From the IMG/VR virus record IMGVR_UViG_2909298281_000001, positions 1-15,778 of that record: a stretch of 15,778 bases of DNA; one strand, 5' to 3'. The DNA comes from a virus. Lineage: Duplodnaviria; Heunggongvirae; Uroviricota; Caudoviricetes. The notes beneath the pieces are model-generated. The model was given only the letters and a program-made list of their open reading frames with translations, ran no database searches and had not been told where the DNA came from. The translations under genes were made by a program, and so were the position numbers. Shown piece by piece: positions 1 to 14,797 of this stretch (the stretch's first letter is position 1; each line of letters opens with the position of its first letter).

Positions 1-1260
1 ATGAAGCTCAACGCCAGACAGGTCGAGACCGCAAAGCCAAAAGACAAAACCTACAAAATGGCCGATGGTGGTGGTTTGTATCTTGAGGTTTCGGCCAAAG
101 GTTCCAAATACTGGCGCATGAAATACAGACGTCCCTCTGACAAAAAAGAGGATCGTCTCGCGTTTGGTGTTTGGCCTACTGTGACGCTTGCTCAGGCAAG
201 AGCAAAGCGCGATGAAGCCAAAAAGCTGTTAGCGCAGGGCATTGATCCAAAAGCCGAACAGAAAGAGGCTCAGGCCGAGAACTCGGGGGCATATACTTTC
301 GAAACCATTGCTCGTGAATGGCATGCTAGTAACAAGCGATGGAGTGAAGACCATCGATTGCGCGTTCTTCGCTATCTTGAACTTTATATCTTTCCATATA
401 TCGGTTCATCTGACATTCGCCAGCTCAAAACCAGCCACCTGTTAGCCCCTATTAAAAAGGTTGATGCCAGTGGCAAGCATGACGTTGCACAGCGTCTTCA
501 GCAGCGTGTCACGGCTATTATGCGTTATGCCGTGCAGAACGATTATATCGACTTTAATCCAGCCAGTGACATGGCCGGTGCGTTATCGACAACCAAAGCG
601 CGACATTACCCCGCCTTACCCTCCAGCAGGTTCCCTGAGTTTCTTGCTCGTCTTGCTGCATATCGTGGGCGTGTAATGACACGAATTGCGGTTGAGCTTT
701 CGTTACTTACTTTTGTGCGTTCCAGCGAGTTACGTTTCGCGCGTTGGGGTGAATTCGACTTCGATAAATCTCTTTGGCGCATACCTGCAAAACGAGAAGA
801 AATTAAAGGGGTGCGTTATTCGTACCGTGGCATGAAGATGAAAGAGGAGCATATCGTGCCGCTTAGTCGTCAGGCGATGAATTTATTAGACCAGCTAAAG
901 CAGATTAGTGGTGATAAGGAGCTGCTTTTTCCTGGTGATCATGACGCAACTAAGGTTATGAGTGAAAACACAGTAAACAGCGCATTACGTGCAATGGGAT
1001 ATGACACTAAGACTGAAGTGTGTGGACATGGATTTAGAACTATGGCTCGCGGTGCGTTAGGTGAGTCAGGGTTATGGAGCGACGACGCGATAGAACGGCA
1101 GTTAAGTCACTCAGAGCGCAACAATGTGCGTGCTGCATATATTCATACATCAGAACATTTAGAAGAACGACGCCTAATGATTCAATGGTGGGCTGATTAT
1201 CTTGATATGAATAAAACAACTTTCATCACGCCATTCGATTTTGCACGATTAAAAAAGTAA
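1..1260 (+). CDS. int: P4-family tyrosine integrase, 419 aa
   Basis: Full-length ORF. N-terminus MKLNARQVETAKPKDKTYK..GGGLYLEVS is typical of P4/IntS-like integrases. C-terminal catalytic-type motifs HGFRTMARG (HxxR) and RAAYIHTSEH (Tyr region). The window begins at the start codon, so attL and the target tRNA lie upstream, outside the window. Confidence 0.93.
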   Translation: MKLNARQVETAKPKDKTYKMADGGGLYLEVSAKGSKYWRMKYRRPSDKKEDRLAFGVWPTVTLAQARAKRDEAKKLLAQGIDPKAEQKEAQAENSGAYTFETIAREWHASNKRWSEDHRLRVLRYLELYIFPYIGSSDIRQLKTSHLLAPIKKVDASGKHDVAQRLQQRVTAIMRYAVQNDYIDFNPASDMAGALSTTKARHYPALPSSRFPEFLARLAAYRGRVMTRIAVELSLLTFVRSSELRFARWGEFDFDKSLWRIPAKREEIKGVRYSYRGMKMKEEHIVPLSRQAMNLLDQLKQISGDKELLFPGDHDATKVMSENTVNSALRAMGYDTKTEVCGHGFRTMARGALGESGLWSDDAIERQLSHSERNNVRAAYIHTSEHLEERRLMIQWWADYLDMNKTTFITPFDFARLKK

Positions 1261-1393
1261 AAACTTTTGCTGAAGTTTCTAGAAATAAAATTTGCTATAA
1301 ATCGACTATTTAAAACTTGGTGGTTGATTTCAATGTGTATTTGTGTTAATGATCTTTTAAATTGAAAAATATTCATCTCAAGTTGACGATTTT

Positions 1394-2296
1394 ATGGAAA
1401 TATCGAAAAATAAAATTTGGGAAGCCAAAGAATGGGAATCTCATGTAAATGATTTACTCCGACTAAAATTTGGTGAAGTAAATTATATATCTATACCTGA
1501 TTTTCATAATGGGGACGCTGGAATTGAGGGATATTGTGTACAGGGATATGCTTTTCAGTCTTATTGTCCTAATGAGGCATGTACAGTTGATAAGTTGTAT
1601 GAAAAACAAAGAGACAAGATGACCGCGGATGTTGCAAAATTCATTTCAGATAAAAAGGGGTATTTAAAAGAAATTCTACAAAACACCAGAATAAAAAGAT
1701 GGATTTTGGTAGTGCCATCTCACTTATCTAAAAAATTGAATGTTCATGCAACAAAAAAAGAAAGTGAAGTTCTAGCTGCTAAATTACCTTATGTTGATAA
1801 TGATGATTTCAAGGTGCTTATTTGGGATCGAGAAAATTTCAAAAAAGAGGAAGATGAATTAATTAGCAGCGGGCTTAGATTATTGAGGATAGAACTTCCT
1901 GAAGTCGATATTAACGATATTGATAATCTAAAAGATAACAATAGCGAGTTTGGCGATAATATTTCAAGGAAGCTTAGAAAGATAAAAAATGATGAGCGTC
2001 AAGTACAGACAGCTTCAACTGTATTATTAAAAAATATAGTTATGTATAAAAACATCATGAGTGGCCTCAAAGATAACTATCCTAGTTTATATGAAAATAT
2101 AACAAATGGTATACTGGATCGTGAGCAAGATTTGTCCTTGGCTTTTTTTGATTCTGAAAATTTGACTCTGACTCAGCAAATTCAACACCTTAATGATAAG
2201 CTAAAACAGTCTAGCCGTCTTCATCAAGATAATCTAAAATGTATTTCTACCGGAGTGGTTGGTGATTGGCTAATGCGCTGTAATTTGGACTTTTAA
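1394..2296 (+). CDS. Hypothetical protein, 300 aa; first gene of hotspot cargo operon (candidate effector)
   Basis: ATG-initiated 300-aa ORF in a markedly A+T-rich segment. Stop TAA at 2294-2296 lies 2 nt before the next ATG (2299), consistent with an operon. No catalytic motif I can assign with confidence; the stretch IPDFHNGDAGIEGYCVQ could be a degenerate nuclease-like acidic motif but this is speculative. Confidence 0.6.
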   Translation: MEISKNKIWEAKEWESHVNDLLRLKFGEVNYISIPDFHNGDAGIEGYCVQGYAFQSYCPNEACTVDKLYEKQRDKMTADVAKFISDKKGYLKEILQNTRIKRWILVVPSHLSKKLNVHATKKESEVLAAKLPYVDNDDFKVLIWDRENFKKEEDELISSGLRLLRIELPEVDINDIDNLKDNNSEFGDNISRKLRKIKNDERQVQTASTVLLKNIVMYKNIMSGLKDNYPSLYENITNGILDREQDLSLAFFDSENLTLTQQIQHLNDKLKQSSRLHQDNLKCISTGVVGDWLMRCNLDF

Positions 2297-2298
2297 TC

Positions 2299-2763
2299 AT
2301 GGATATTCTAAAAGAAACGCCTGAAAAGATGACTTTTAACTCGACTGGTTCGCCTGTTGAACCCGAATTAAGACCCATCTGGAGAATATCCTTGCTTGCT
2401 ATCATTCTTAAAAAACTATGCAGAGGCTCTTCTGCGAGTTTAAAAAAAATGCAAGTTTTATATTCTTTGATTTCCTCCGCCGATAAAAGAAGTCGGTATT
2501 TCACTGAAGGAGGTAATGCGGATATAAGCATTCGGTTTGATCCTCTCTTAGATAGAGCTATTTCGTTGGGAGTGGCAGAAGGTATATTTACTTTGGATGC
2601 TGCAAAAAGCGTTGTGTTAACCAATAAGGGCACGCTCTTATCTAATAAAATTTACAAAGATTCAACATTATTCGTTTTTGAAAAGGAATTTATCGAGAAC
2701 TATAGTAAATCTGAATTTTCCGATAAAAAGATAGATCAAATATTATACAGGGGAATTATATGA
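2299..2763 (+). CDS. Hypothetical protein, 154 aa; middle gene of hotspot cargo operon
   Basis: ORF tightly packed between flanking genes; its stop TGA (2761-2763) overlaps the ATG of the next gene (2760-2762) as ATGA. AGGGGA Shine-Dalgarno-like sequence at 2748-2753 serves the downstream gene. No recognizable motif. Confidence 0.55.
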   Translation: MDILKETPEKMTFNSTGSPVEPELRPIWRISLLAIILKKLCRGSSASLKKMQVLYSLISSADKRSRYFTEGGNADISIRFDPLLDRAISLGVAEGIFTLDAAKSVVLTNKGTLLSNKIYKDSTLFVFEKEFIENYSKSEFSDKKIDQILYRGII

Positions 2764-3987
2764 GCAAACTTAAGATTGAGAGATTAATTATACGAACAAA
2801 TACTAGTGATGGAATATATGGGACAGACCTTAAATTTGGCTATGGTCTAAATATTATAAGTGCTGAGAACTCTTCTGGTAAATCCACCTGTATACAATCA
2901 ATTATTTATGCACTAGGATTGGAGGGAATATTGGGACCATCCAGAAAAAATCCCTTAAAGTCTGCTCTAACTACTAAATTACGTGATAATAATGATACTG
3001 AAATACCGGTTAATGAATCAAAAATTTATCTCCAACTTTCTAACGAACATTCAAGAAAAATAACTATTTTAAGAAAAAGTGATAGTGATATTTCAAAAAT
3101 CGTTACCGTATATGACTGTGAGTTCGATAAAATCAATCCTCACAAATTTACGGACTATTTTTTGAAAGATCCCGGTTCTGCTCAGCGTGAGAAAGGATTT
3201 CATTATTTTCTTTCGAATTTCTTAGGGATAACACAGCCCGAAGTGATTAAATATGATGGAACCAAGTGTCCACTTTATCTTGAGTCAATATTCACAGTTA
3301 ATTATGTAGAGCAAACAAGAGGTTGGGGTGGGATTCTAAATGTTATTCCTACTTACTTGGGTATTAAGGATTTATCACAAAACGTTCTTGAATATACTCT
3401 TAATTTAGATGTTCGAGAAATAAGAAAGAAACGCGAGATATTTTTAGATGAAAAGAAAAATCTTGAAACTAAATGGGCAAATACAATCTCAGAGTTAGAG
3501 TCTAATGCAAAGGCTTATGGCTTCTTTGTATCAACAAGAATACCTGATAAAATCACTACAAAATCAGATACCTATCAAGATAGTGATTTATATACATTGG
3601 ATGAAAATAATCGTGAGATTTCTTTACCACTATACAAGGCTCATAAAGAGAACGAATTAGAATATATTAGAGCACAATTAAAAAATAACGACATCCCTAA
3701 TGATGGGGTGTTAGATTCTGTTCTTGATAGTCTTCGAGTGAATTTAGCTAATCAAGAATATGCTCTTTCATTATTAATCTCTGACATAGAGTCTAATAAA
3801 CTGTATATAAGTTCAATTAATAAGAGTCTGACTGATACAAAAGAAAGTCTTAGAAAATATAGAGATATTGAAAAGCTTAAGTTATTGGGCTCGCAGGAGG
3901 ATTTTTCTTTTGTCACTGGTAGTTGCCCAACTTGTGGACAAGCCGTTGAAGATACTCTCTTACCAGCGAGCTTTGATGGAAAGACAT

Positions 3988-3996
3988 TAACGGTTG
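3988..3996. repeat. IS1 target-site duplication, left copy (TAACGGTTG)
   Basis: 9-bp TAACGGTTG immediately abuts the IS1 end and is repeated exactly at 4765-4773. Confidence 0.88.
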
Positions 3997-4011
3997 GGTA
4001 ATGACTCCAAC

Positions 4012-4515
4012 TTATTGATAGTGTTTTATGTTCAGATAATGCCCGATGACTTTGTCATGCAGCTCCACCGATTTTGAGAACGACAGCGACTTCCGTCCCA
4101 GCCGTGCCAGGTGCTGCCTCAGATTCAGGTTATGCCGCTCAATTCGCTGCGTATATCGCTTGCTGATTACGTGCAGCTTTCCCTTCAGGCGGGATTCATA
4201 CAGCGGCCAGCCATCCGTCATCCATATCACCACGTCAAAGGGTGACAGCAGGCTCATAAGACGCACCAGCGTCGCCATAGTGCGTTCACCGAATACGTGC
4301 GCAACAACCGTCTTCCGGAGCCTGTCATACGCGTAAAACAGCCAGCGCTGGCGCGATTTAGCCCCGACGTATCCCCACTGTTCGTCCATTTCTGCGCAGA
4401 CGATGACGTCACTGCCCGGCTGTATGCGCGAGGTTACCGACTGCGGCCTGAGTTTTTTAAGTGACGTAAAATCGTGTTGAGGCCAACGCCCATAATGCGG
4501 GCAGTTGCCCGGCAT
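4012..4515 (-). CDS. insB: IS1 transposase InsB reading frame, 167 aa (expressed as InsAB' fusion by -1 frameshift)
   Basis: Translation [25 protein letters not shown]...NIKHYQ matches IS1 InsB as I recall it; position and length are canonical within IS1. Confidence 0.9.
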
Positions 4516-4709
4516 CCAACGCCATTCATGGCCATATCAATGATTTTCTGGTGCGTACCGGGTTGAGAAGCGGTGTAAGTGAACTGCAGTTGCCATGTTT
4601 TACGGCAGTGAGAGCAGAGATAGCGCTGATGTCCGGCGGTGCTTTTGCCGTTACGCACCACCCCGTCAGTAGCTGAACAGGAGGGACAGCTGATAGAAAC
4701 AGAAGCCAC
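4434..4709 (-). CDS. insA: IS1 InsA transposition repressor, 91 aa
   Basis: Translation [43 protein letters not shown]... with zinc-finger CxxC..CxxC and HTH region; canonical IS1 InsA length. Confidence 0.93.
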
Positions 4710-4764
4710 TGGAGCACCTCAAAAACACCATCATACACTAAATCAGTAAGTTGGCAGCATCACC

Positions 4765-4773
4765 TAACGGTTG
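4765..4773. repeat. IS1 target-site duplication, right copy (TAACGGTTG)
   Basis: Exact repeat of 3988-3996 immediately after the IS1 terminal repeat. Confidence 0.88.
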
Positions 4774-5582
4774 AAGATAATATAAAGTATCTAGAAAAAA
4801 CCTATGCAGTATTTGATAGCTTGGCAAAAAGTGAAAAAATAAAATTTGAAAGAAAAGAAGCTGCATTAAAAGTAGCTAATGCTAAAGTTCGAGACTTGCG
4901 TAATCAGATCAAAGAAGTTCAGCGTAGCATATCATCTCCTATAAACTCCGAGCTTAGAGAACTCATAAGAAAGGAAGTTAAACTGGAAAAGGATATCGAC
5001 ATTTTAAACTCACTGGAGGAATTCGAAATTAGTAAAAAAGATACACTTATGGCTGTTCTTTCTGATTGGTATGATTGTAATAATCAACTAACAGTACTTC
5101 CGTATGATGGTTTTAGCAAAGCAGATATATTAAAGTTGAGGTTATTACGTGATTCATTTAAATCAAACTTGGAGGATTTTGGTTATAAAAGTACACCAAT
5201 TGAAGAGTTTGATTTATCGAGAAATACATACAAACCAACTGTCGATGGTATAGATATCGGCTCTGAAGCATCCGCCAGTGATAACATTAGGGTGATTTGG
5301 TCATATTTGTATTCATTGTTGATGTTAGATTCCAGTGCAAGAGATATCTCAACTAATCATTTGGGACTGTTGATTATGGATGAACCAAGACAGCAAGAAA
5401 CTAAAGATGCTAGTTTTAGAACACTAATTAAGAAAGCATCTGAGTCGTATATTCAAGAAAAACAGATTATTATGGGTACTAGTGAAAAATTTACTGATTT
5501 AATTGCCATGCTGGATGGTTTGCATGTGAATCTTTTGCATTTCGATAGTAATATTATCCGTAAACAGTAAATCCCTCAATGT

Positions 5583-5618
5583 CCTGTTGCATCGCTAAAT
5601 ACTTAGCGATGCAACAGG
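5583..5618. terminator. Perfect 16-bp hairpin downstream of the cargo operon (candidate intrinsic terminator)
   Basis: CCTGTTGCATCGCTAA (5583-5598), loop ATAC, TTAGCGATGCAACAGG (5603-5618), 13 nt after the stop at 5570, followed by A+T-rich sequence. The T-run is not immediately adjacent, so efficiency is uncertain. Confidence 0.5.
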
Positions 5619-5811
5619 GGTATATAATTATTTATTTGTGTTGAATATAACTTCATCCTAATTTTTTTGTTTATGAAAAAGTCACTAAGAATAATTCATT
5701 TGGTTCTATTCGTTTTTCATTAAAATATTTAATCGAGATATTCAAAGATTTATATTCTATTTTGTCAATTGAACTGGCTGTAAAAGAGAAATCATTTAAA
5801 GTTGGCGCGCA

Positions 5812-5830
5812 GTGCTTTCCCCGCCTCGCC
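5812..5830 (-). other. cos site (19-nt cohesive end of the P2/P4 family)
   Basis: GTGCTTTCCCCGCCTCGCC on the plus strand is the reverse complement of GGCGAGGCGGGGAAAGCAC, which I recall as the P2/P4 cohesive-end sequence. It sits between the cargo region and psu, where cos lies in integrated P4. Confidence 0.75.
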
Positions 5831-5933
5831 CGCCCGCTTTGCGGGGCGGTTTTAATGCAGTTGCACTGACACGCTCAGGCCGCGCCGGGAATGGCGCGGT
5901 CTGCAGAAAATGAGGCAAGAAAACGCATGCAAA

Positions 5934-5964
5934 GCCATGCACCTTATCGATGCATGGCTTTTTT
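5934..5964. terminator. Hairpin plus T-run downstream of psu (candidate terminator, possibly bidirectional)
   Basis: GCCATGCA (5934-5941), 9-nt loop, TGCATGGC (5951-5958), then TTTTTT (5959-5964) on the plus strand. On the minus strand the same hairpin lies about 30 nt past the psu stop but with a weaker U-tract. Confidence 0.4.
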
Positions 5965-5994
5965 CAGTAAAAACGGGCAGATTTTCGGGGAGTT

Positions 5995-6567
5995 TTACAC
6001 AGACTGATGTGATGCCAGTTGCGCACTTTTACGCGAAAAAATCATGTTCTGCGCAGGGGTGAATTTTTCACGGCTGTCATCCACCGAAGCCGCGTCAGGC
6101 CTGAATCCGATGGTCGTTAAAATGTCGCTATCCTGTGCGGAATAATTAATTTTTTCACCCTTCGCAAGCCAGGACAGGAGGGCTTCACGCAGGGCATCTG
6201 TGGCACGCTGTATGGCACAGTTTCGGGCAATGACCGTCAGTTCACTGTAGCCCATCAGCTCCGGTGCCAGTGCGGCCGCCAGTACTGTGCCGTGCTGCTG
6301 CATAAAATCATTCAGCCGGTCGCGGATGCTGATGTGCTGAACGGCTTCATGCGAACGAATATAACGACCGGCGGCCTGATTCACCTGCCATTTTCTGACT
6401 TCGATAATATTGCGTAATTCGTCCAGGCGACTGACGTTTCTGCCTTCTCCTGACAGAAGCCGCAGGTATTCCTGTTCGGCCGCTGCCAGCTCATTTTTGC
6501 GTTGCAGCCATGCTGCTTTGTTATTCTGATAGGTGTCAAAGGCCTGCTGTAAGGCTGTGCTTTCCAT
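5995..6567 (-). CDS. psu: Psu polarity-suppression protein (capsid decoration / Rho antagonist), 190 aa
   Basis: 190-aa ORF beginning MESTALQQAFDTYQNNKAAWLQRKNELAAAEQEY... Length and sequence character match P4 Psu as I recall it, and it is the last gene of a sid-delta-psu order. Confidence 0.9.
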   Translation of the reverse strand: MESTALQQAFDTYQNNKAAWLQRKNELAAAEQEYLRLLSGEGRNVSRLDELRNIIEVRKWQVNQAAGRYIRSHEAVQHISIRDRLNDFMQQHGTVLAAALAPELMGYSELTVIARNCAIQRATDALREALLSWLAKGEKINYSAQDSDILTTIGFRPDAASVDDSREKFTPAQNMIFSRKSAQLASHQSV

Positions 6568-6640
6568 CGTTATCTCTTTCTCATCATGCTGAAGAATAAA
6601 AATACGGTGTGCGGCGACGGCCGGTGTTAACCGGCAGCCC

Positions 6641-7141
6641 TCATTCCAGACGCAGCGAATATGATTGTGTTTTTAACCGTACTGGCGGCAGTTCCTGTTT
6701 TTCATGCAGGCGTTCTGCCAGTTCGTCCGGTGTGACCGGGCGGACAATGAAGCGGTTGATGGTCTGAAGCGTTTTAAACACCAGACCACAGCCCGGATCC
6801 GTGCACACATAAAAACGCTCGGTGACTTCCTGAGAGAGACGCCGCGATGTTCTTGACAGTGCAAGGCCTTTACATCTCCGACAACAATATCCGGTAACAA
6901 GCATTCTTTTCGGGCGTTTCATACTGCCGGAGGCTGACGTCAGTGAATCGCGGTATCTCTGTTTGCCTGAAATGTATTCCATTCCTGAATCTTTACTGTC
7001 AGAGAAAAAGCTTTCACTCGCTTCAAATGTCGCAGAGCAATAAATATTCCGGCACTGTGCAATCATTATCTTGGTGCCATCGTCCATGAAATGTGCGCGG
7101 CGGGTGTGAGCAACATGTCCACACGACGGGCAGTAAATCAT
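6641..7141 (-). CDS. delta: Delta late-gene transcriptional activator (tandem Ogr-like zinc-finger protein), 166 aa
   Basis: Two Ogr-type cysteine clusters (CPSCGH...CRNIYC and CRRC...CTDPGC) in a 166-aa protein, the P4 Delta length as I recall. ATGA overlap with the sid stop (7138-7141). Confidence 0.9.
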   Translation of the reverse strand: MIYCPSCGHVAHTRRAHFMDDGTKIMIAQCRNIYCSATFEASESFFSDSKDSGMEYISGKQRYRDSLTSASGSMKRPKRMLVTGYCCRRCKGLALSRTSRRLSQEVTERFYVCTDPGCGLVFKTLQTINRFIVRPVTPDELAERLHEKQELPPVRLKTQSYSLRLE

Positions 7142-7872
7142 GACAGCAGTCCTCTGGCCTTAAGCTCTGCTCCCTGCTGGTCTATTTTGTCCTGCCACAC
7201 CTTGCGCTGTGCCGGTGTGCCCGCCACCTCATAATCCATGTGCGGAAGTGTTGCCGCTGACAGTCCGGTCAGCCGGAGAACCGGCTCGCCGGTGAGGCTG
7301 ATTTGCATCTGTTTTATTTTCTGTTCCAGCGATGATTTCACCTGCTGCATGACAGCTTTATCGGGTGCGACGTAGCCCTGATGCCCGGTGGTGTTGGCGA
7401 GCGGATTTTCCTGTACCAGAATGCTCAGATGCATTGCCCGGACAAGCGCCTCACAGGTTTCATTCAGGGCGTGTTCCAGCTCATGCTCTGCATACAGACT
7501 CAGCAGGTGATGATGTGCCTTCCGGTAGGCGGTGGCCGTGCTGTCACACGCCCCTTTCAGGCGTTCACGTTCGAAATTCAGCACCACGGCCAGATTGTCA
7601 TATTCCTGTACCAGCTCCCGGCGTGCCACGCGCTCAATGTGGCGCTGTTTCAGCTCGTCGCTCAGGACACCACCGGCTGCACGAAAGGCCGTGCGCCAGT
7701 CGTCAGCGTCGTTTCCGTCGGCCTGCGCCAGCGCATTTTTTTCCTGCTCTGCCCGTTCAATGGCCGCGACGGTCTCATCCATCAGGCGGGCGTTCTCAAG
7801 ATGGGCGGCTCTGGCCTTTTCCAGTTGTGCCAGTGCGGGTTGCAGATATTCAGGGATAGTGTGGTCAGACAT
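7138..7872 (-). CDS. sid: Sid external scaffold (capsid size determination) protein, 244 aa from the ATG at 7872
   Basis: The track ORF (7138..7890) starts at a GTG. The in-frame ATG at 7870-7872 is preceded on the minus strand by GAGGAG about 8 nt upstream and gives 244 aa, the P4 Sid length as I recall. Coiled-coil-like, alanine-rich sequence. Confidence 0.85.
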   Translation of the reverse strand: MSDHTIPEYLQPALAQLEKARAAHLENARLMDETVAAIERAEQEKNALAQADGNDADDWRTAFRAAGGVLSDELKQRHIERVARRELVQEYDNLAVVLNFERERLKGACDSTATAYRKAHHHLLSLYAEHELEHALNETCEALVRAMHLSILVQENPLANTTGHQGYVAPDKAVMQQVKSSLEQKIKQMQISLTGEPVLRLTGLSAATLPHMDYEVAGTPAQRKVWQDKIDQQGAELKARGLLS

Positions 7873-7897
7873 TTTCCGGCTCCTCGTCACTTCAGGT

Positions 7898-7962
7898 TAA
7901 GAAAATTGTGACGTACACCGGACAACAACACGACGCATTGCAGATGTGCCAGCCCTGACACA
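7898..7962 (-). promoter_or_regulatory. Candidate Psid late promoter with two TGT-N12-ACA Delta/Ogr-type dyads
   Basis: Dyads TGTGCCAGCCCTGACACA (7945-7962) and TGTGACGTACACCGGACA (7907-7924), centres about 38 bp apart. With a predicted leftward start near 7898 (a CACAAT -10-like hexamer on the minus strand at 7910-7905), they sit at about -55 and -17. I recall P4 late promoters carrying an extra activator site near -18. Confidence 0.5.
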
Positions 7963-8041
7963 GGAGACTCATCCTCAGACCGGCAAGCCAGGAAAAGGTC
8001 GCAGGAAAAACCGGCTTACTGTTTGTTTTTTTATATTTTAC

Positions 8042-8145
8042 TGTTCACCTCTGTTCACCATAAGAAAAAAGATAAGTAATACAGTAAGTTAAAGGGTGAA
8101 CAATCGCAGTAATGACTGTTCACCGTCTGTTCACCACTGTTCACC
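8042..8145. repeat. Iteron cluster (TGTTCACC octamers), candidate P4-type ori
   Basis: Five direct copies of TGTTCACC (8042-8049, 8052-8059, 8118-8125, 8128-8135, 8138-8145) and one inverted copy GGTGAACA (8095-8102). The same octamer recurs in the crr repeats downstream of alpha, about 4.8 kb away, consistent with the P4 ori/crr arrangement as I recall it. Confidence 0.6.
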
Positions 8146-8302
8146 CGTTAATGGGCTTTTTGTGCTGTTCATTACTTTTTATTTTTATTAATTCACTGAA
8201 ATAAATAAGAAAAAACAATTTGTATTTCACTATAATTTTTTCCAGCTCCTTCCAGAGCGTTTTAAAGCTATCTGCGCTGATGTACAAAAAATACACAGCC
8301 AT

Positions 8303-8365
8303 TGTAAGACTGCCGGAACAAATCCCCCCTGTTGCGTCTGCCGAAAATATTCACAAAATAAAGCG
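8303..8365 (+). promoter_or_regulatory. Candidate PLL late promoter upstream of vis
   Basis: TGT-N12-ACA dyad TGTAAGACTGCCGGAACA (8303-8320) followed about 45 bp later by a CACAAA -10-like hexamer (8352-8357) resembling the Psid CACAAT. A second, imperfect dyad lies near 8339-8355. Start site predicted around 8365. Confidence 0.4.
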
Positions 8366-8422
8366 CTACCCGAAGCCGGACGGACTTATCCGGTGCTGTA
8401 TGGACATTAACGAGGTAGCCCG

Positions 8423-8689
8423 ATGCAAGCTGTTTTTTCTTCCCCGTCTCCCGCCCCTGTGACGCCACTGATGCCGCTGCCGGACATCACGCAGGAGCGT
8501 TTTTTACGTCTGCCGGAAGTGATGCACCTGTGCGGCCTGTCACGCTCGACCATCTATGAACTCATCCGTAAGGGGGAATTTCCGCCGCAGGTGAGTCTTG
8601 GCGGTAAAAATGTGGCCTGGCTGCACTCTGAAGTCACCGCATGGATGGCCGGGCGCATTGCCGGACGCAAACGGGGGTACGACGCATGA
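8423..8689 (+). CDS. vis: Vis-like / AlpA-family helix-turn-helix regulator, 88 aa
   Basis: GAGG 7 nt upstream of the ATG. Sequence ...[28 protein letters not shown].. is AlpA/Vis-type HTH in character. 88 aa matches the P4 orf88 (vis) length as I recall. Confidence 0.75.
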
Positions 8690-8724
8690 TGATGCCTGTT
8701 CTGCAAAAAGTCCCTTTTTCTGGC

Positions 8725-8754
8725 TTGCCTTTTTCCGGCATTTGCGGATATAGT
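8725..8754 (+). promoter_or_regulatory. Candidate PLE early/immunity promoter (sigma-70 type)
   Basis: -35 TTGCCT (8725-8730), 18-bp spacer, -10 TATAGT (8749-8754). Lies just upstream of the seqA-like element at about 8784-8810. Confidence 0.4.
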
Positions 8755-8929
8755 TTTTCCGCTGTCGCAAAATCGGCAGCCGGGCGTAGGAACCCGTGTA
8801 ACTCGAAGGCGACATATGACGCGCCATGCGTCTTTTTTTGTGTCGCAATCAACGCCACAGAGCGCCAGATTATGGTGTGGCGTGTGGTTTGCCGTGCAGG
8901 TATGATCCTGTTCGCAATCGCATGTTATG

Positions 8930-9008
8930 CCACTGAGTCAATGGTAGCTCAGGCGGGGCAGCCTCCGGGCTGGCCGGTATTCTTCGAGGCCGGTATTCCT
9001 ACCCCCGT
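8930..9008 (+). ncRNA. Candidate CI immunity RNA (P4-type RNA repressor) containing a seqB-like element; boundaries approximate
   Basis: A segment TTCTTCGAGGCCGGTATTCCTACCC (about 8980-9004) is complementary to two flanking elements that share GCGTAGGAAC...CTCGAAGG (about 8784-8810 and 9028-9068), matching the seqA/seqB/seqC logic of P4 immunity as I recall it. Ends cannot be set from sequence alone. Confidence 0.35.
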
Positions 9009-9078
9009 CTGGGCTATCGCCATCGAGCGTAGGAACTCCGGCGATAGCAGTTATTTGCTACTCGAAGGAGACGGCCTT

Positions 9079-9276
9079 ATGGCTACAACCCTTACCCCCT
9101 CACACCCTGAATTTGTCTTTGTGTTTGCGGCTGTCCGTCGCGCAGACCGTCATCCCCGTATCTGTATGCTTCGCACCGTCGCCGGTGATGAACGCAGTGC
9201 CCGCCGTTCCCTTGTCCGTGACTATGTGCTCTCCCTTGCTGCCCGTCTGCCGGTGGTGGAGGTGTCCCGTGCGTAA
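9079..9276 (+). CDS. Small protein, 65 aa, kil-like by position (first translated gene after the immunity RNA)
   Basis: ATG at 9079 preceded by AAGGAG (9065-9070), which lies inside the downstream seqC-like element. Stop overlaps the next gene's GTG start (GTGCGTAA, 9269-9276). Confidence 0.45.
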
Positions 9277-9556
9277 TAAAAAAGCCCCTCAGACCGTCTC
9301 AGCGCGTCATGACGCCCGTGAACACCTCAGCATTGAGGCTTACCATAAGCTCAACCGCGCCAGCGCCGTATCCCAGTTTGTTGGGGGTGATTTGATTCAC
9401 CGTGAACTCTCCGGCCTGCATCAGCTCTACATTCCGCATATTTTCAGCTACCTGAATGAAGATATTGATTTTGTGCTGAATGAGCTGAAAGCCAAAGGCC
9501 TGTGCCGCGATTTTCTCGCCCAGCAGAAAGACCGGGGAGACAGGACGCATGTTTGA
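9269..9556 (+). CDS. Epsilon-like small protein, about 95 aa from the GTG start (assignment by position)
   Basis: GTG at 9269 is preceded by GGAGG (9258-9262) and is in frame with the track ORF 9113..9556. Its stop overlaps the orf151 start. Sits immediately upstream of orf151 as the epsilon gene does in P4, as I recall. Confidence 0.5.
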
Positions 9557-10004
9557 TTTTCCCCAGCCCGGTGAGATTTACCGTTCTGCCGGTTTTCCCG
9601 ATGTGGCCGTGGTCGGCATTCTGGAAGACGGTATTCCGTGGGAAATGCCGTACCGCTGCCCGGACATTGTCTGGAACCCGTACCGCCGTAAATTCAGTAT
9701 CCTTGTGCGTATCCTCGCTGACGGGCGCACCACAGACATCCCGCTGGGGCGTTTTCTGCGGGAATTTACCTGTGACCGTCCTGACCTGTTTAAACGCAGC
9801 CCCGTAAACCGGCATGCGGTACTGAAAGAAATGGCCGGAGACCCGGAATTACAGAAATGGCGGGAGAAATATCTGGATATTTACCCGCAGGACCCTGTTC
9901 CGGTCAGCCGGGCGGCACCGGTGGCGCGGGAATGGCGGGAAATTCCCCGCACGGAGCCTGACCCGGAAATCACCCCGGATAACAGTTACCGCAATTATCT
10001 GTAA
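9549..10004 (+). CDS. P4 orf151-like protein, 151 aa
   Basis: Exact 151-aa length, position between the epsilon-like gene and alpha, and start overlapping the upstream stop (ATGTTTGA). Confidence 0.8.
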   Translation: MFDFPQPGEIYRSAGFPDVAVVGILEDGIPWEMPYRCPDIVWNPYRRKFSILVRILADGRTTDIPLGRFLREFTCDRPDLFKRSPVNRHAVLKEMAGDPELQKWREKYLDIYPQDPVPVSRAAPVAREWREIPRTEPDPEITPDNSYRNYL

Positions 10005-10139
10005 TTAAAAAACGACACCCGAAAAATTAAATGTGCGTATTCGCGCAGGGATACGCACGTCTTCAGGAGACGCAGATATGCCTTATCAGTTAATGCAACC
10101 GGCACGGAATGCAGTCATCTGTCACAGGGAGGAAAGCAA

Positions 10140-10460
10140 ATGAAAACACCCTTACCGCCCGTCTTACGCGCTGCCCTTTACCGTCGTGCTGTCGCCTGTG
10201 CCTGGCTGACCGTGTGCGAACGTCAGCACCGCTACCCGCATCTCACCCTTGAGTCACTGGAGGCGGCCATCGCCGCTGAGCTGGAAGGCTTTTATCTGCG
10301 CCAGCACGGTGAGGAAAAAGGGCGTCAGATAGCCTGTGCCCTGCTGGAAGATTTAATGGAATCCGGCCCCCTGAAGGCCGCGCCGTCGCTGTCCTTTCTC
10401 GGGCTGGTTGTGATGGATGAACTCTGTGCCCGTCACATAAAAGCGCCGGTACTGCACTGA
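10140..10460 (+). CDS. P4 orf106-like protein, 106 aa
   Basis: 106-aa ORF immediately upstream of alpha with matching codon usage. The name is from recollected P4 ORF nomenclature. Confidence 0.7.
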
Positions 10461-10474
10461 AGGAGAACTACACC

Positions 10475-12808
10475 ATGAAAATGAACGTAACCGCCACCGT
10501 CAGTCATGCGCTCGGCCACTGGCCGCGTATTCTCCCGGCGCTGGGGATTCAGGTGCTGAAAAACCGTCATCAGCCCTGTCCGGTCTGTGGCGGGAGTGAC
10601 CGCTTCCGTTTTGATGACAGGGAGGGGCGCGGCACCTGGTACTGCAATCAGTGTGGTGCCGGTGACGGCCTGAAACTGGTTGAAAAGGTGTTTGGTGTTT
10701 CCCCGTCCGACGCGGCCGCAAAGGTGGCTGCCGTGACCGGCAGCCTGCCCCCGGCTGACCCGGCAGTGACGGCCGCCGCCGTTGCTGAAACAGAAGCCGC
10801 CCGGAAGAACGCCGCCGCACTGGCACAAACCCTGATGGCGAAAACCCGTCCCGGAACCGGTAACGCCTACCTGACCCGCAAGGGCTTTCCCGGCCGGGAA
10901 TGCCGGATGCTGACCGGCACACACAGAGCCGGTGGCGTGAGCTGGCGCGCCGGTGACCTTGTGGTGCCACTGTATGACGACAGCGGCGAACTGGTTAACC
11001 TTCAGTTAATCAGTGCTGACGGCCGTAAGCGCACCCTGAAAGGCGGACAGGTCAGGGGCACCTGTCACATCCTTGAAGGACAGAATCAGGCCGGAAAACG
11101 TCTGTGGATAGCGGAGGGATACGCGACCGCACTTACCGTGCATCACCTGACCGGTGAAACGGTGATGGTGGCGCTTTCTTCCGTGAACCTCCTTTCTCTG
11201 GCCAGACTTGCCCGGCAGAAGCATCCGGCCTGTCAGATTGTCCTTGCCGCAGACCGTGACCTCAGCGGTGACGGCCAGAAAAAAGCCGCCGCAGCCGCAG
11301 ATGCGTGTGAAGGTGTTGTTGCCCTGCCGCCGGTCTTCGGTGACTGGAATGATGCCTTCACGCAGTACGGCGGGGAGGCCACCCGTAAGGCCATTTACGA
11401 TGCCATCCGGCCACCGGCTGAAAGCCCGTTCGACACCATGAGCGAAGCGGAGTTTTCCGCCATGAGTACCAGCGAAAAGGCCATGCGTATCTATGAGCAT
11501 TACGGCGAGGCGCTCGCGGTCGATGCCAACGGCCAGCTTCTGTCCCGTTATGAAAATGGTGTCTGGAAGGTGCTGCCGCCACAGGACTTTGCCCGGGATG
11601 TGGCCGGGCTGTTTCAGCGGCTGCGCGCGCCGTTCTCCTCCGGGAAGGTGGCCTCCGTGGTGGACACCCTGAAGCTGATTATTCCGCAGCAGGAAGCCCC
11701 CTCCCGCCGCCTGATTGGCTTTCGTAACGGTGTGCTCGACACACAGAACGGCACGTTCCACCCGCACAGTCCGTCACACTGGATGCGCACCCTGTGTGAT
11801 GTGGATTTCACCCCACCGGTGGAAGGGGAAACGCTGGAAACCCACGCCCCCGCGTTCTGGCGCTGGCTTGACCGTGCCGCCGGTGGCCGTGCGGAAAAAC
11901 GCGACGTGATTCTGGCCGCACTGTTTATGGTGCTGGCAAACCGCTACGACTGGCAGCTCTTTCTGGAGGTGACCGGTCCCGGCGGCAGCGGCAAAAGTAT
12001 CATGGCCGAAATAGCCACCCTGCTGGCCGGGGAGGATAACGCCACATCGGCCACCATTGAGACGCTGGAATCCCCGCGTGAACGTGCCGCGTTAACTGGC
12101 TTCTCACTGATACGCCTGCCTGACCAGGAAAAATGGAGCGGCGACGGTGCCGGACTCAAGGCCATCACCGGCGGCGATGCGGTGTCCGTTGACCCGAAAT
12201 ACCGGGATGCGTACTCCACGCACATCCCGGCGGTGATTCTGGCCGTGAACAATAACCCGATGCGCTTCACCGACCGCAGCGGCGGCGTGTCACGCCGGCG
12301 GGTGATTATTCACTTCCCTGAACAGATAGCCCCGCAGGAGCGCGACCCGCAGCTTAAGGACAAAATCACCCGCGAGCTGGCGGTCATCGTGCGTCACCTG
12401 ATGCAGAAATTCAGCGACCCGATGCTCGCCCGGTCACTGCTTCAGTCCCAGCAGAACTCAGACGAGGCGCTGAACATCAAACGGGATGCCGACCCGACGT
12501 TTGATTTTATCGGCTATCTGGAAACCCTGCCGCAGACCAGCGGCATGTATATGGGGAACGCCAGTATCATCCCGCGCAATTACCGTAAATACCTCTATCA
12601 CGCCTATCTGGCCTACATGGAGGCAAACGGCTACCGGAACGTACTCAGTCTGAAAATGTTCGGGCTGGGGCTGCCGGTGATGCTGAAGGAATACGGACTG
12701 AATTACGAGAAGCGCCATACCAAACAGGGGATACAGACCAACCTGACACTGAAAGAGGAAAGCTACGGCGACTGGCTGCCAAAATGTGACGACCCTGCAA
12801 CAGCCTGA
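10475..12808 (+). CDS. alpha: Alpha primase-helicase replication protein, 777 aa
   Basis: AAGGAGA ribosome-binding site (10460-10466). N-terminal zinc-binding CPVCGGSDRF...YCNQCGAGDG followed by a primase-type acidic region (..LAADRDLSGDGQ..). Central Walker A GPGGSGKS and D5-type SF3 helicase region. 777 aa is the P4 alpha length as I recall. Confidence 0.95.
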   Translation: MKMNVTATVSHALGHWPRILPALGIQVLKNRHQPCPVCGGSDRFRFDDREGRGTWYCNQCGAGDGLKLVEKVFGVSPSDAAAKVAAVTGSLPPADPAVTAAAVAETEAARKNAAALAQTLMAKTRPGTGNAYLTRKGFPGRECRMLTGTHRAGGVSWRAGDLVVPLYDDSGELVNLQLISADGRKRTLKGGQVRGTCHILEGQNQAGKRLWIAEGYATALTVHHLTGETVMVALSSVNLLSLARLARQKHPACQIVLAADRDLSGDGQKKAAAAADACEGVVALPPVFGDWNDAFTQYGGEATRKAIYDAIRPPAESPFDTMSEAEFSAMSTSEKAMRIYEHYGEALAVDANGQLLSRYENGVWKVLPPQDFARDVAGLFQRLRAPFSSGKVASVVDTLKLIIPQQEAPSRRLIGFRNGVLDTQNGTFHPHSPSHWMRTLCDVDFTPPVEGETLETHAPAFWRWLDRAAGGRAEKRDVILAALFMVLANRYDWQLFLEVTGPGGSGKSIMAEIATLLAGEDNATSATIETLESPRERAALTGFSLIRLPDQEKWSGDGAGLKAITGGDAVSVDPKYRDAYSTHIPAVILAVNNNPMRFTDRSGGVSRRRVIIHFPEQIAPQERDPQLKDKITRELAVIVRHLMQKFSDPMLARSLLQSQQNSDEALNIKRDADPTFDFIGYLETLPQTSGMYMGNASIIPRNYRKYLYHAYLAYMEANGYRNVLSLKMFGLGLPVMLKEYGLNYEKRHTKQGIQTNLTLKEESYGDWLPKCDDPATA

Positions 12809-12815
12809 CCCACCT

Positions 12816-12841
12816 GACCGGCATCTGCCGGTCTTTTTTTT
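12816..12841 (+). terminator. Rho-independent terminator after alpha
   Basis: GACCGGCA-TC-TGCCGGTC perfect 8-bp stem (12816-12833) followed directly by a run of eight T (12834-12841), 8 nt after the alpha stop. Confidence 0.75.
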
Positions 12842-12856
12842 ATCCCGATATCCCCC

Positions 12857-13160
12857 GAAGGTGAACAATCCACTGTTCACCCTTCACCGTATGTTCACCC
12901 GTTATCACACTGAAATTAAAAGAGAAAAACGAAAGGTGAACAGTGTGAACAATCAAATCAAAAAAAACTTTTTTCTTCCTGAGTGATTTCAGTACGGGGG
13001 ATTAATCACCGGTATGAGTCACACCGGCAGAATGCCGGAGGTGAAGAATCGAATGTTCACCCTTCACCCATTATTCACCATCTATTACTCTGAAATAAAA
13101 GGAGAAAATCAAAGGGTGAACAGTGTGAACAGTTCTTCCGAAAAAAAATTTTTTATGTGG
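12857..13160. repeat. crr (cis replication region): two direct repeats of about 120 bp, each with several TGTTCACC/GGTGAACA iterons
   Basis: Unit 1 about 12857-12980 and unit 2 about 13037-13160 align closely (e.g. ..GTTCACCCTTCACC..CTGAAAT.AAAAG.AGAAAA.C.AAAGGTGAACAGTGTGAACA..AAAAAAA.TTTTTT). The about 60-bp spacing matches my recollection of P4 crr. Confidence 0.7.
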
Positions 13161-13344
13161 GTAAAAGATGCACTGGTTTGGATCCGAGCTACGGATCCAA
13201 ACTCACTGATTAAAAATTAGTTAACTTTCCGATTTGTTGATGGGTTGAAAATAGATTGGTCAGAAAAACAGTGGGGGCACAAAAGGGGGCATATTTCATT
13301 TTTGTTTTTTATTATTTGTTTTTTATCATTGACTTATTTTGATA

Positions 13345-13366
13345 TTTGAGTCCGGCCTTCGCACCT
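13345..13366 (+). other. Candidate attR core: degenerate copy of a tRNA 3' end (right boundary of the element)
   Basis: TTTGAGTCCGGCCTTCGCACC resembles a tRNA T-arm/acceptor 3' end (TTCGAGTCCGGCCTTCGGCACCA type), with one substitution and one deletion relative to my recollection of a leucine tRNA end. Located after crr where attR is expected. Confidence 0.45.
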
Positions 13367-13575
13367 TCGCACCATCGGAACATCAATAGACATCAACGGA
13401 CGTTTTTTTATGACTGAAATCCGCGCCACACAAGGCTTTTCGCTATTTTTCGCTCAACCTAAGTCAACCTACATCAACTTACTGATGTGGATACAGCTAC
13501 AGCTGCGGCTATACCCCGATTCGATAATGTTTGTACCCACACAAAACCCTTGAAAGGCTACAAGGCTGAAATTGT

Positions 13576-13794
13576 CTAAACCATAGAGATGATTTTTATG
13601 ATCCAGTCTTTCTCTTGTTGAGATAGTTCCAGTTTGCTCACTCGTGTTAAGAAGGTATTGATCACCTGAACATCCGAATTGGTGAGCCTATTTAATAGAG
13701 CGGGTGGTATACCTTTACTAACAATCGCTTTGCGGTGACTTTCGTAGTTTTTATTACTCATTGTTGATCCTAAAAAATCATTGTATGGCGGCAT
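13576..13794 (-). CDS. Hypothetical small ORF, 72 aa (possibly the downstream fragment of a frameshifted gene)
   Basis: ORF from track only; lies 23 nt downstream of the 80-aa ORF on the same strand in a different frame. Confidence 0.3.
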   Translation of the reverse strand: MPPYNDFLGSTMSNKNYESHRKAIVSKGIPPALLNRLTNSDVQVINTFLTRVSKLELSQQEKDWIIKIISMV

Positions 13795-13817
13795 TGATCG
13801 TTTCCAGCAACCTTTAC

Positions 13818-14060
13818 TTACTCACTTCGAACTGCATCCTCGTAGACTGTTCCACTACAATAATCGAAAAGGCGCGGATGTCCATTCAGGTATCCCGCTA
13901 ATACGTATAGCAATAACAATGGCTTATGCGGCGCGCGCTGTTCACCCTTGTGCCAGATTTTTATATTGGCAATTGCCTGCTGTAGCGATTTACTGGAAGC
14001 TATTGATATCCCTGGCAGTGAAATAATTGCGATCATGCTCGCAAATTTTCTGCTGTTCAA
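13818..14060 (-). CDS. Hypothetical small ORF, 80 aa
   Basis: ORF from track. Weak local resemblance (I-x-I-W-x-x-G-E ... P) to the N-terminal region of the divergent HNH-domain protein at 14140..14790. Confidence 0.3.
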   Translation of the reverse strand: MNSRKFASMIAIISLPGISIASSKSLQQAIANIKIWHKGEQRAPHKPLLLLYVLAGYLNGHPRLFDYCSGTVYEDAVRSE

Positions 14061-14139
14061 GCCTGCAAGTGAAGATATATTACCTTGATCTCATTTGTTT
14101 TTTTGCTGCCTGTTCTGAGAACGTATAAGGACATTCTCC

Positions 14140-14790
14140 ATGAATAAACTCCCTGATCATCTTCCGCGGCGGTATATCATCGAAGCTATCCATTTATGGG
14201 ATGCGGGAGAAACTCATCAGTTCCAGCCTGCGCGGTTGTATGAGATTGAATATCATGGCCGACGTTACCCCTCGAAGGCGATTGCTGGCATCGCAGCGAC
14301 ATTGATGACGGGGACGCAATTTACCCCTGCGGATTTCACCGGCGGAATAAAATCTAAATGTGTCAAGCTACTCATAGAGCAGGGATTTCATATTCATCTG
14401 GATAAAGCCGCTGCGGCTCCCATAGCCGACGTTCTGTTCCCGGATGAGTTGCCGTCGCAGGAGACATACCTTGAAGGTGCGGCGATAAAGGTGACAGTAA
14501 ACCGCTATGAACGCGATAAAAAGGCCCGAGATAAAGCGGTCGAACATCATGGATGCCAGTGCAACGTATGCGGTGTTGATCTGGTGAAGATCTATGGTGA
14601 TATCGCTGAAGGCTTTATCCATGTGCATCACCTGGTGCCGCTGTCAGCCATTAAAGAGGATTACCAGCTGGATCCAGTTAATGATTTGCTGCCTGTGTAC
14701 CCTAATTGCCATGCGATGTTGCACCGACGCAAACCACCGTTTACGCCGGAGCAGTTAAAAGCGCTGATGGATGCGAATAAATCAAATTAA
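14140..14790 (+). CDS. HNH endonuclease-domain protein, 216 aa, with an uncharacterized N-terminal domain
   Basis: C-terminal HNH-type motif CQCNVCGV...HVHHLVPLS...N...YPNCHAMLH (two Cys pairs plus His-His and Asn). The N-terminal 130 aa has no motif I can assign. Confidence 0.75.
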   Translation: MNKLPDHLPRRYIIEAIHLWDAGETHQFQPARLYEIEYHGRRYPSKAIAGIAATLMTGTQFTPADFTGGIKSKCVKLLIEQGFHIHLDKAAAAPIADVLFPDELPSQETYLEGAAIKVTVNRYERDKKARDKAVEHHGCQCNVCGVDLVKIYGDIAEGFIHVHHLVPLSAIKEDYQLDPVNDLLPVYPNCHAMLHRRKPPFTPEQLKALMDANKSN

Positions 14791-14797
14791 TGAACGC

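Follow-up and report, generated by a model that had tools for sequence, protein, structure and literature searches.

A probable type II Lamassu operon in a P4-like satellite hotspot: candidate lmuA and lmuC genes beside an lmuB gene interrupted by IS1

What do two adjacent genes without a functional label do between the integrase and psu genes of a P4-like element? The genes lie in a 15,778-nucleotide stretch of DNA (positions 1 to 15,778 of the IMG/VR virus record IMGVR_UViG_2909298281_000001, Caudoviricetes; the whole stretch is referred to below as the window). They occupy positions 1394-2296 and 2299-2763 of the plus strand and code for proteins of 300 and 154 residues, respectively. An earlier reading of the letters without database searches (the original prediction) took them for a possible new effector and a possible new middle component in a hotspot, on the condition that their operon is a defence system. 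The roles assigned to the two proteins have stood, within a defence operon that comprises three genes, an ABC-ATPase gene among them, and sits in a hotspot of a mobile element. Their supposed novelty has not stood. As described below, the two proteins are very likely the LmuA effector and the LmuC middle component of a type II Lamassu (ABC-3C) anti-phage system carried in the hotspot of a P4-like satellite, and the third gene of this system, lmuB, is interrupted in the window by an IS1 element.

Both open reading frames (ORFs) start with ATG, and their lengths and positions are as originally drawn. The N-terminal stretch IPDFHNGDAGIEGYCVQGYAFQSY that had been quoted as aromatic and acidic is present and starts at residue 34 of the 300-residue protein. 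lmuA and lmuC are separated by 2 nucleotides, and the stop codon of lmuC overlaps the start codon of lmuB in the sequence ATGA. The two frames exceed what would be expected by chance: the LmuA profile matches 1077 clusters at 50% identity with E-values up to 1e-3 (546 of these with E-values up to 1e-30), and homologues of the 154-residue protein and of a 677-residue protein are found downstream in all 70 loci that could be judged. RefSeq labels lmuA, lmuC and lmuB as "hypothetical protein" in two Escherichia coli genomes. A 128-residue antisense ORF inside lmuA and lmuC (2247-2633, minus strand) most likely results from nothing more than the AT-richness of the sequence and was disregarded. A scan of the window for promoters and terminators gave output at chance level and was not used.

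The identification of the two proteins comes from PADLOC. The 300-residue protein matches the LmuA model PDLC03852 with an E-value of 1.7e-31 over profile positions 16-333 of 336, and the 154-residue protein matches the LmuC model PDLC03871 over its full length with an E-value of 1e-26. General libraries were silent. Neither protein, nor any of 54 family members, has a significant match in Pfam (Host_attach and TetR_C_39 appeared as noise), NCBIfam gave no match for either of the two, and sequence searches of the Protein Data Bank (PDB) came back empty, both for the individual proteins and for the profile of the family. It is therefore understandable that the proteins had been described as having no assignable domains. 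This description is accurate for Pfam, NCBIfam and PDB sequence searches, but it does not extend to PADLOC or to the predicted folds.

The same PADLOC models are matched by a system with known function. E. coli SE15 (O150:H5) has a Lamassu-Mrr system that has been validated by experiment. Its proteins, with sequences as listed by Millman et al. 2022 (Table S2), match PDLC03852, PDLC03871 and the LmuB model PDLC03863 with E-values of 1.4e-105, 4e-57 and 2.6e-105, respectively. Relatives with 27-31% identity to the window LmuA match these three models together with their neighbours, and LmuC proteins of other Lamassu subtypes match other PADLOC models. Given the set of models shared with SE15 and with the relatives, the window operon belongs, as a divergent member, to the branch covered by these profiles. 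The two systems are alike in gene order (lmuA, then lmuC with a winged helix, then lmuB with an SMC-like ATPase and a CxxC hook), in the two-domain architecture of LmuA and in the register of its motifs (EWE and EFE..EW, GDxGIE and GDKGRD, YQC and YQC, and [DE]xxK on the next helix). They differ in the size of LmuA, which is about 375 residues in SE15 and 300 residues in the window, where an N-terminal extension of about 45 residues is missing.

The gene order is conserved throughout the family. Among 80 sampled loci, 70 had enough downstream DNA to be judged, and all 70 showed the order lmuA-lmuC-lmuB, 57 of them by an ORF rule and 13 by hidden Markov models (HMMs) built from those 57. In the latter group, lmuB was split in two loci and cut by the end of the contig in one. 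The window LmuC, a winged-helix protein whose fold matches that of solved LmuC, matches its family HMM (C80) with an E-value of 7.5e-42, and LmuB, when restored as described below, matches the corresponding B80 HMM with an E-value of 6e-201. Canonical LmuC has no match to C80 and canonical LmuB only a weak one to B80, so that the partners of the window LmuA form their own clade. Two further loci show the same gene order beside Gabija-like and toxin-antitoxin genes. In L003 (Melaminivora jejuensis, 9532-10927) and L005 (8559-10391), a GajA-like OLD/TOPRIM ATPase and ParE/PaaA2 toxin-antitoxin pairs adjoin distant Lamassu copies, which are defence-island contexts.

The third gene of the operon is divided in two. 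The 5' part of lmuB (2760-3996, plus strand, codons 1-412) encodes the ATPase head in its N-terminal half together with the ascending coiled coil, and residues 389-392 of its product form a CPTC zinc hook. It ends in the left copy of a 9-bp target-site duplication, TAACGGTTG (3988-3996), which is followed by a complete IS1 element of 768 bp with insA/insB in minus orientation (3997-4764), the right copy of the duplication (4765-4773) and the 3' part of lmuB (4774-5570, plus strand) with the descending coiled coil, the C-terminal half of the head and the Walker B motif LLIMDE. The terminal repeats GGTAATGAC... and ...GCATCACC are visible at the ends of the element, and in the source genome its two ORFs (4434-4709 and 4012-4515) have the domains Zn_ribbon_InsA/HTH_Tnp_IS1 and DDE_Tnp_IS1. 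The PADLOC LmuB model PDLC03863 matches both flanks of the insertion: the ORF at 2760-4001 with an E-value of 5.9e-59 (profile positions 2-334 of 610) and the ORF at 4821-5570 with an E-value of 3.8e-33 (positions 361-597 of 610). Removal of IS1 and of one copy of the duplication restores a 677-residue LmuB ORF, which contains the Walker A motif AENSSGKST, Walker B and the zinc hook. E. coli 2013C-4974 has the operon intact (NZ_CP027587, 4790125-4793524), and its LmuB and the restored protein differ at 3 residues. LmuB, which has weak matches to AAA_23 and SMC_N in Pfam and matches Rad50/SMC families in NCBIfam, is an SMC/Rad50-like ABC ATPase with a coiled coil and a zinc hook. The interruption did not figure in the original prediction, which dealt with the lmuA and lmuC region.

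As lmuB is interrupted, judging from its sequence the operon is probably non-functional as a defence system in the source strain. IS1 sits at codon 412, just past the CPTC hook, and the allele is found in one public assembly only (CP024252.1). Hence one may ask whether lmuA and lmuC in the source genome are leftovers of a dead system and are decaying, an explanation that is compatible with the Lamassu reading of the family and to which we are inclined. The insertion with its target-site duplication points that way, as do damaged alleles elsewhere. In E. coli OkiPb01713 (NZ_AP042682.1), a homopolymer tract of seven A within lmuA (1753-1759 in the window, plus strand) has eight A, and the resulting +1 frameshift splits lmuA into two coding sequences. 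A 183-residue C-terminal fragment of LmuA (P0015) is found on 281 contigs, as compared with 91 contigs for intact LmuA. This A7/A8 difference may reflect phase variation or the spread of a null allele. Furthermore, lmuB is split in 2 of the 70 loci from distant hosts. The conservation of the remaining genes speaks against decay: lmuA is nucleotide-identical to that of the intact operon and LmuC differs from its counterpart by one residue, and the insertion is therefore recent. In addition, both halves of lmuB are still open, the second from a TTG at 4821, and might still be made. A recent survey also found very few defence-like pseudogenes in P4 and P2 elements (less than 1% of the pseudogenes found in P4). 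The two distant split loci, L022 (Variovorax sp. E3) and L058 (an alphaproteobacterial metagenome-assembled genome), have intact lmuA and lmuC genes and an lmuB gene split into two ORFs at about 6350-8400 in each; these are independent disruptions of the ATPase gene.

Regardless of the state of the operon in this strain, the effector poses a question of its own. The model of LmuA that AlphaFold2 produced from a 54-sequence alignment has a mean predicted local distance difference test score (pLDDT) of 89.5 and a predicted template modelling score (pTM) of 0.80. It shows an N-terminal helix, three strands, a helix and a strand in a core that ends near residue 160; the C-terminal domain beyond it is helical, with helices at 173-295. 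The alpha-beta-beta-beta-alpha-beta core of the PD-(D/E)xK superfamily is present in the model. The best PDB matches to the whole model are the LmuA chains of 9nxx and 9hr5, and its structural neighbours (comparison values in brackets) include the FokI cleavage domain (9.5), the CdiA-CT EC869 DNase (8.6), the Mrr-like nuclease of LlaBIII (8.4), N.BspD6I (8.0), AF1548 (8.0), Salmonella LmuA (7.9) and Avs4 (7.8). The N-terminal domain (approximately residues 1-160; 1394-1873, plus strand) is thus modelled as a restriction-endonuclease fold of the PD-(D/E)xK, Mrr/FokI-like type. Foldseek returned the same LmuA entries and Cap4 at its top, all of them weak (E-values of 0.016 or higher). Cap4 was rejected as the effector type, as it appeared among the top Foldseek matches only at E-values of 0.2-0.9 and DUF4297 was unmatched.

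The C-terminal domain (approximately residues 173-300; 1910-2293, plus strand) is helical in the AlphaFold2 model, as had been anticipated, but it is not rich in lysine and glutamate: these two residues make up 14% of the C-terminal half compared with 20.7% of the N-terminal half, and it is Leu, Asp and Asn that are abundant. Among 147 representatives with pairwise identity of 50% or less, W292 and C296 are nearly invariant and L298 is invariant. By analogy with Cap4-type LmuA, this domain would be the part that is sequestered and that oligomerises.

The same 147 representatives were used to examine the putative active site. D41, an E or D at position 45, Q55 and K75 are kept in every one of them, and K193 is likewise invariant. 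D79 is found in 144 and K82 in 145. Position 57 is a Tyr in 143 and a Phe in 4 representatives, and it is never a Lys. In the window, the motif G40-D41-x-G43-I-E45...Q55-x-Y57 (1514-1564, plus strand) resembles the GDxGxD...QxK motif of Mrr, with Tyr in place of Lys, and a second motif, K75-x3-D79-x2-K82 (1616-1639, plus strand), is located on the helix after strand 3. The motif of the family can be written GDxG[IL][ED]...Qx[YF]. The pattern GDxGx[DE]...Qx[YF] was found in 247 of 254 sequences of the LmuA family and QxK in none, whereas 119 of 120 canonical Lamassu-Mrr LmuA sequences contain GDxGxD...QxK. The family consensus YQCY falls within predicted strand 3, where PD-(D/E)xK enzymes have (D/E/Q)xK, and in weak hhalign alignments of the family with both canonical references it stands opposite the canonical YQCK. 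The earlier statement that there is no PD-(D/E)xK motif with a lysine was correct and, as it turns out, applies to the entire set of representatives, although the predicted fold is nuclease-like nevertheless. The Mrr/FokI-type domains of FokI (2fok), LlaBIII (4xqk), AF1548 (1y88) and Avs4 (N-terminal domain, 8dgf) differ from the window LmuA in the same respect, as the latter lacks the Lys of QxK. With the acidic residues of the metal site and the Gln retained, K75 on the following helix may be a relocated catalytic Lys. For comparison, canonical Mrr-type LmuA has an invariant E120-x2-K123, but no more than 18 of its 33 sequences have K116.

If the window system works as Cap4-type complexes do (PMC12663957; bioRxiv 10.1101/2025.03.14.643221; bioRxiv 10.1101/2025.06.23.660979), an LmuB dimer and one LmuC would hold a single LmuA inactive near the zinc hook through the LmuA C-terminal domain (LmuA1:LmuB2:LmuC1). 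LmuB and LmuC would sense DNA ends or phage replication intermediates and release LmuA. The freed LmuA would then oligomerise through its C-terminal domain, thus pairing the nuclease domains, and the paired domains would cut DNA indiscriminately and abort the infection. Defence by Lamassu-Mrr requires the ATPase, the effector and lmuC, and it behaves as abortive infection (Millman et al. 2022). In Cap4-type systems, interface mutants are hyper-toxic (bioRxiv 10.1101/2025.03.14.643221, Li et al. 2025).

A number of results weigh against this reading of the operon. BLASTP against the SE15 proteins detected no similarity for LmuA or LmuC and only the Walker A region for LmuB. An hhalign comparison of the family with SE15 LmuA or with the alignment of 33 canonical sequences gave E-values of 0.014-0.031 and probabilities of 1.6-3%, in a consistent register but not significant, and a search with the HMM of 33 canonical Mrr-type LmuA sequences (alignment A3) gave a single marginal match with an E-value of 0.003 outside the nuclease motif. 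Because these direct comparisons are not significant, we claim no direct homology, only a consistent register, and the link to Lamassu-Mrr therefore rests on one broad third-party profile, the fold and the operon context. The PF20282 C-terminal domain, which is carried by canonical Mrr-type LmuA, has no match in the window family. Neither Mrr_cat (PF04471) nor the Cap4 nuclease family DUF4297 matched LmuA or its 54 relatives at E-values up to 1. Of the complete PD-(D/E)xK catalytic set, the acidic residues and the Gln are invariant and the strand-3 Lys is missing, and since it is absent from every member, nuclease activity of LmuA is not assured. Each step of the mechanism outlined above was carried over from Cap4-type complexes, and no experimentally tested member of the QxY LmuA subfamily was found in the literature searched. 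Finally, the sequestration model predicts that disruption of lmuB in the presence of an intact lmuA frees toxic LmuA, yet the strain is viable. A 412-residue LmuB fragment that ends just after the hook might still bind LmuA. A separate hhalign comparison of the family with Mrr of E. coli K-12 showed no relation.

Some of these points would be better accommodated if the system were Lamassu but the N-terminal domain of LmuA were not a conventional hydrolytic nuclease. The domain would then be a dead DNA-binding module or an enzyme with other chemistry, and the toxic output would not be the shredding of DNA. As Phe is tolerated at position 57, a catalytic role of this side chain is excluded; Tyr or Phe occupies it in 147/147 representatives, QxK occurs in 0/254 sequences, and neither Mrr_cat nor any other nuclease family of Pfam was detected. 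The viability of the lmuB::IS1 strain with its intact lmuA gene would also be less puzzling if LmuA did no harm in its free form. Set against this are the conservation of D41, E/D45, Q55, K75, D79 and K82, which is typical of an active site, and the close structural neighbours of the model, all of which are nucleases. Moreover, the loss of the canonical Lys need not mean the loss of activity: some active enzymes of the PD-(D/E)xK superfamily have this Lys substituted or relocated. On balance, we regard a non-nuclease LmuA as unlikely. A broader proposal, which we put forward tentatively and regard as rather unlikely, is that LmuA proteins of about 300 residues with a QxY motif form a large unstudied branch of Lamassu effectors that has lost the canonical Lys throughout, and in which either the active site has been rebuilt around K75 or the domain is no longer a simple DNA hydrolase. 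If this is true, the viable lmuB::IS1 strain with an intact lmuA would suggest that the QxY effector, unlike Cap4-type LmuA, is non-toxic when freed and follows a different activation logic.

The location of the operon bears on whether it serves immunity at all. On its left is a P4-type tyrosine integrase of 419 residues (1-1260, plus strand) with the domains Arm-DNA-bind_3, Phage_int_M and Phage_integrase in the source genome, and on its right is psu, the P4 polarity suppression gene (5995-6567, minus strand; Pfam Psu, E-value 5.6e-87). These two genes are the boundaries of the hotspot. In E. coli 2013C-4974, the integrase gene adjoins a tRNA-Leu gene, and the element is found beside tRNA-Leu in E. 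coli. The GC content of the operon is 33%, and that of its surroundings is higher (integrase 47%; psu-sid 54%; about 54-61% over the psu-sid and alpha-primase genes; IS1 53%). The operon is carried as cargo in the defence hotspot that a P4-like satellite prophage has between its integrase gene and psu. It is also rare: near-identity and lower-identity blastn searches found it in 2 of 5426 complete E. coli genomes.

One could propose instead that the operon is not immune in function and that it is a DNA-repair module akin to Rad50/SbcCD or serves the satellite against its helper phage, for example by interference with P2. LmuB does resemble Rad50 and SMC proteins, Lamassu has been proposed to derive from SbcCD, and the locus is part of a helper-dependent satellite. 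The integrase-to-psu interval of P4 is nevertheless a hotspot known for defence cargo, and the operon is patchily distributed there and foreign in its GC content. At other loci, the operon has Gabija-like and toxin-antitoxin genes as neighbours and is carried by plasmids of many phyla. Furthermore, the related Lamassu-Mrr systems defend against phages. A repair or helper-directed function is thus very improbable. Least credible of all is that the 300- and 154-residue proteins represent a novel effector and a novel middle component outside the families described so far, for although Pfam, NCBIfam and PDB sequence searches are empty and RefSeq calls the proteins hypothetical, this is contradicted by the full-length PADLOC matches, by the validated SE15 system on the same models and by the folds of solved LmuA and LmuC. 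For the effector, the curated match to PDLC03852 (with PDLC03871 for its partner) and the restriction-endonuclease fold leave its supposed novelty without support.

With the Lamassu reading retained, the window operon can be set beside other described systems. The Cap4-type Lamassu complexes of known structure, V. cholerae DdmABC (PDB 9nxx, 9ny5) and S. enterica LmuACB (PDB 9hqx, 9hr5), share about 6-14% identity with the window proteins. Their nuclease is of the Cap4/DUF4297 type, in which the catalytic Lys is present (as K57 in LmuA of V. cholerae), so that the window LmuA belongs to a different nuclease subfamily, and V. cholerae LmuB is without a zinc hook, whereas the window LmuB has CPTC. 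With the ABC-3C systems, as classified by Krishnan et al. 2020, the likeness is in architecture: the effector combines an N-terminal domain that varies with a C-terminal domain that is conserved, the middle component is a small protein with a winged helix, and the ATPase is ABC/SMC-like. Pfam families derived from ABC-3C (middle components MC1-8 and the C-terminal domain families) gave no match to the window proteins. Lamassu-var (Domainator paper, PMC11754643; CP038295, 4116517-4120474) is likewise Lamassu-related cargo beside psu and integrase in E. coli satellites, but its middle component is annotated as ABC-3C MC2, and both the ATPase and the effector are shorter and occur in split form. 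With 259 hotspots it is abundant, in contrast to the window locus with its 2 complete genomes out of 5426. Identity with Lamassu-var was rejected, as the genes are different. The "Lamassu missing a known effector" that was tested in PMC13586616 has been described by that study as similar to Lamassu-var and was not equated with the window locus.

Beyond E. coli, the family is widespread. The best 150 LmuA clusters are nearly all about 300 residues long and are matched almost end to end. In reference genomes, the hosts comprise Proteobacteria, Actinobacteria (Streptomyces is among the carriers), Cyanobacteria, Acidobacteria, Planctomycetes, Verrucomicrobia, Chloroflexi, Bacteroidetes, Firmicutes and Methanosarcina. 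Family members were found on 28 plasmids from many phyla, and a tblastn search of phage genomes found none. QxY LmuA together with LmuC and LmuB is present in archaea at three loci (L069, L080 and L086; Methanosarcina and other Methanosarcinales), with 30-31% identity to the E. coli protein.

From 5995 to 12808, the window contains the gene set typical of a P4-like satellite. Besides psu, this consists of an Ogr/Delta zinc-finger protein (6641-7141), a Sid-like gene without a Pfam match (7138-7890; the equivalent gene is called "glycoprotein 3" in RefSeq), AlpA (8423-8689), Ash (8641-9276), a DUF5375 protein (10140-10460) and the alpha primase-helicase (10475-12808). Past the primase there is a 216-residue ORF without a Pfam match (14140-14790, plus strand) and a 326-residue ORF with a SASA (sialate O-acetylesterase-like) domain (14798-15778, minus strand), which runs off the end of the window.

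In summary, the locus encodes a three-gene system of a known kind. The three genes labelled "hypothetical protein" in RefSeq can be named lmuA, lmuC and lmuB, no new category is required, and the idea of a new effector is unsupported. The loss of the canonical Lys across the family, on the other hand, is real, and it marks an LmuA subfamily that is widespread and goes undetected by the general domain libraries now in use. The operon has been knocked out twice independently, by IS1 in lmuB in the window and by a poly-A frameshift in lmuA in other strains, and is thus a possible natural case study of the cost of its carriage. Finally, the QxY subfamily would offer a cheap and informative test of whether the mechanism of sequestration, release and oligomerisation, and DNA cleavage with it, reach beyond Cap4-type effectors.

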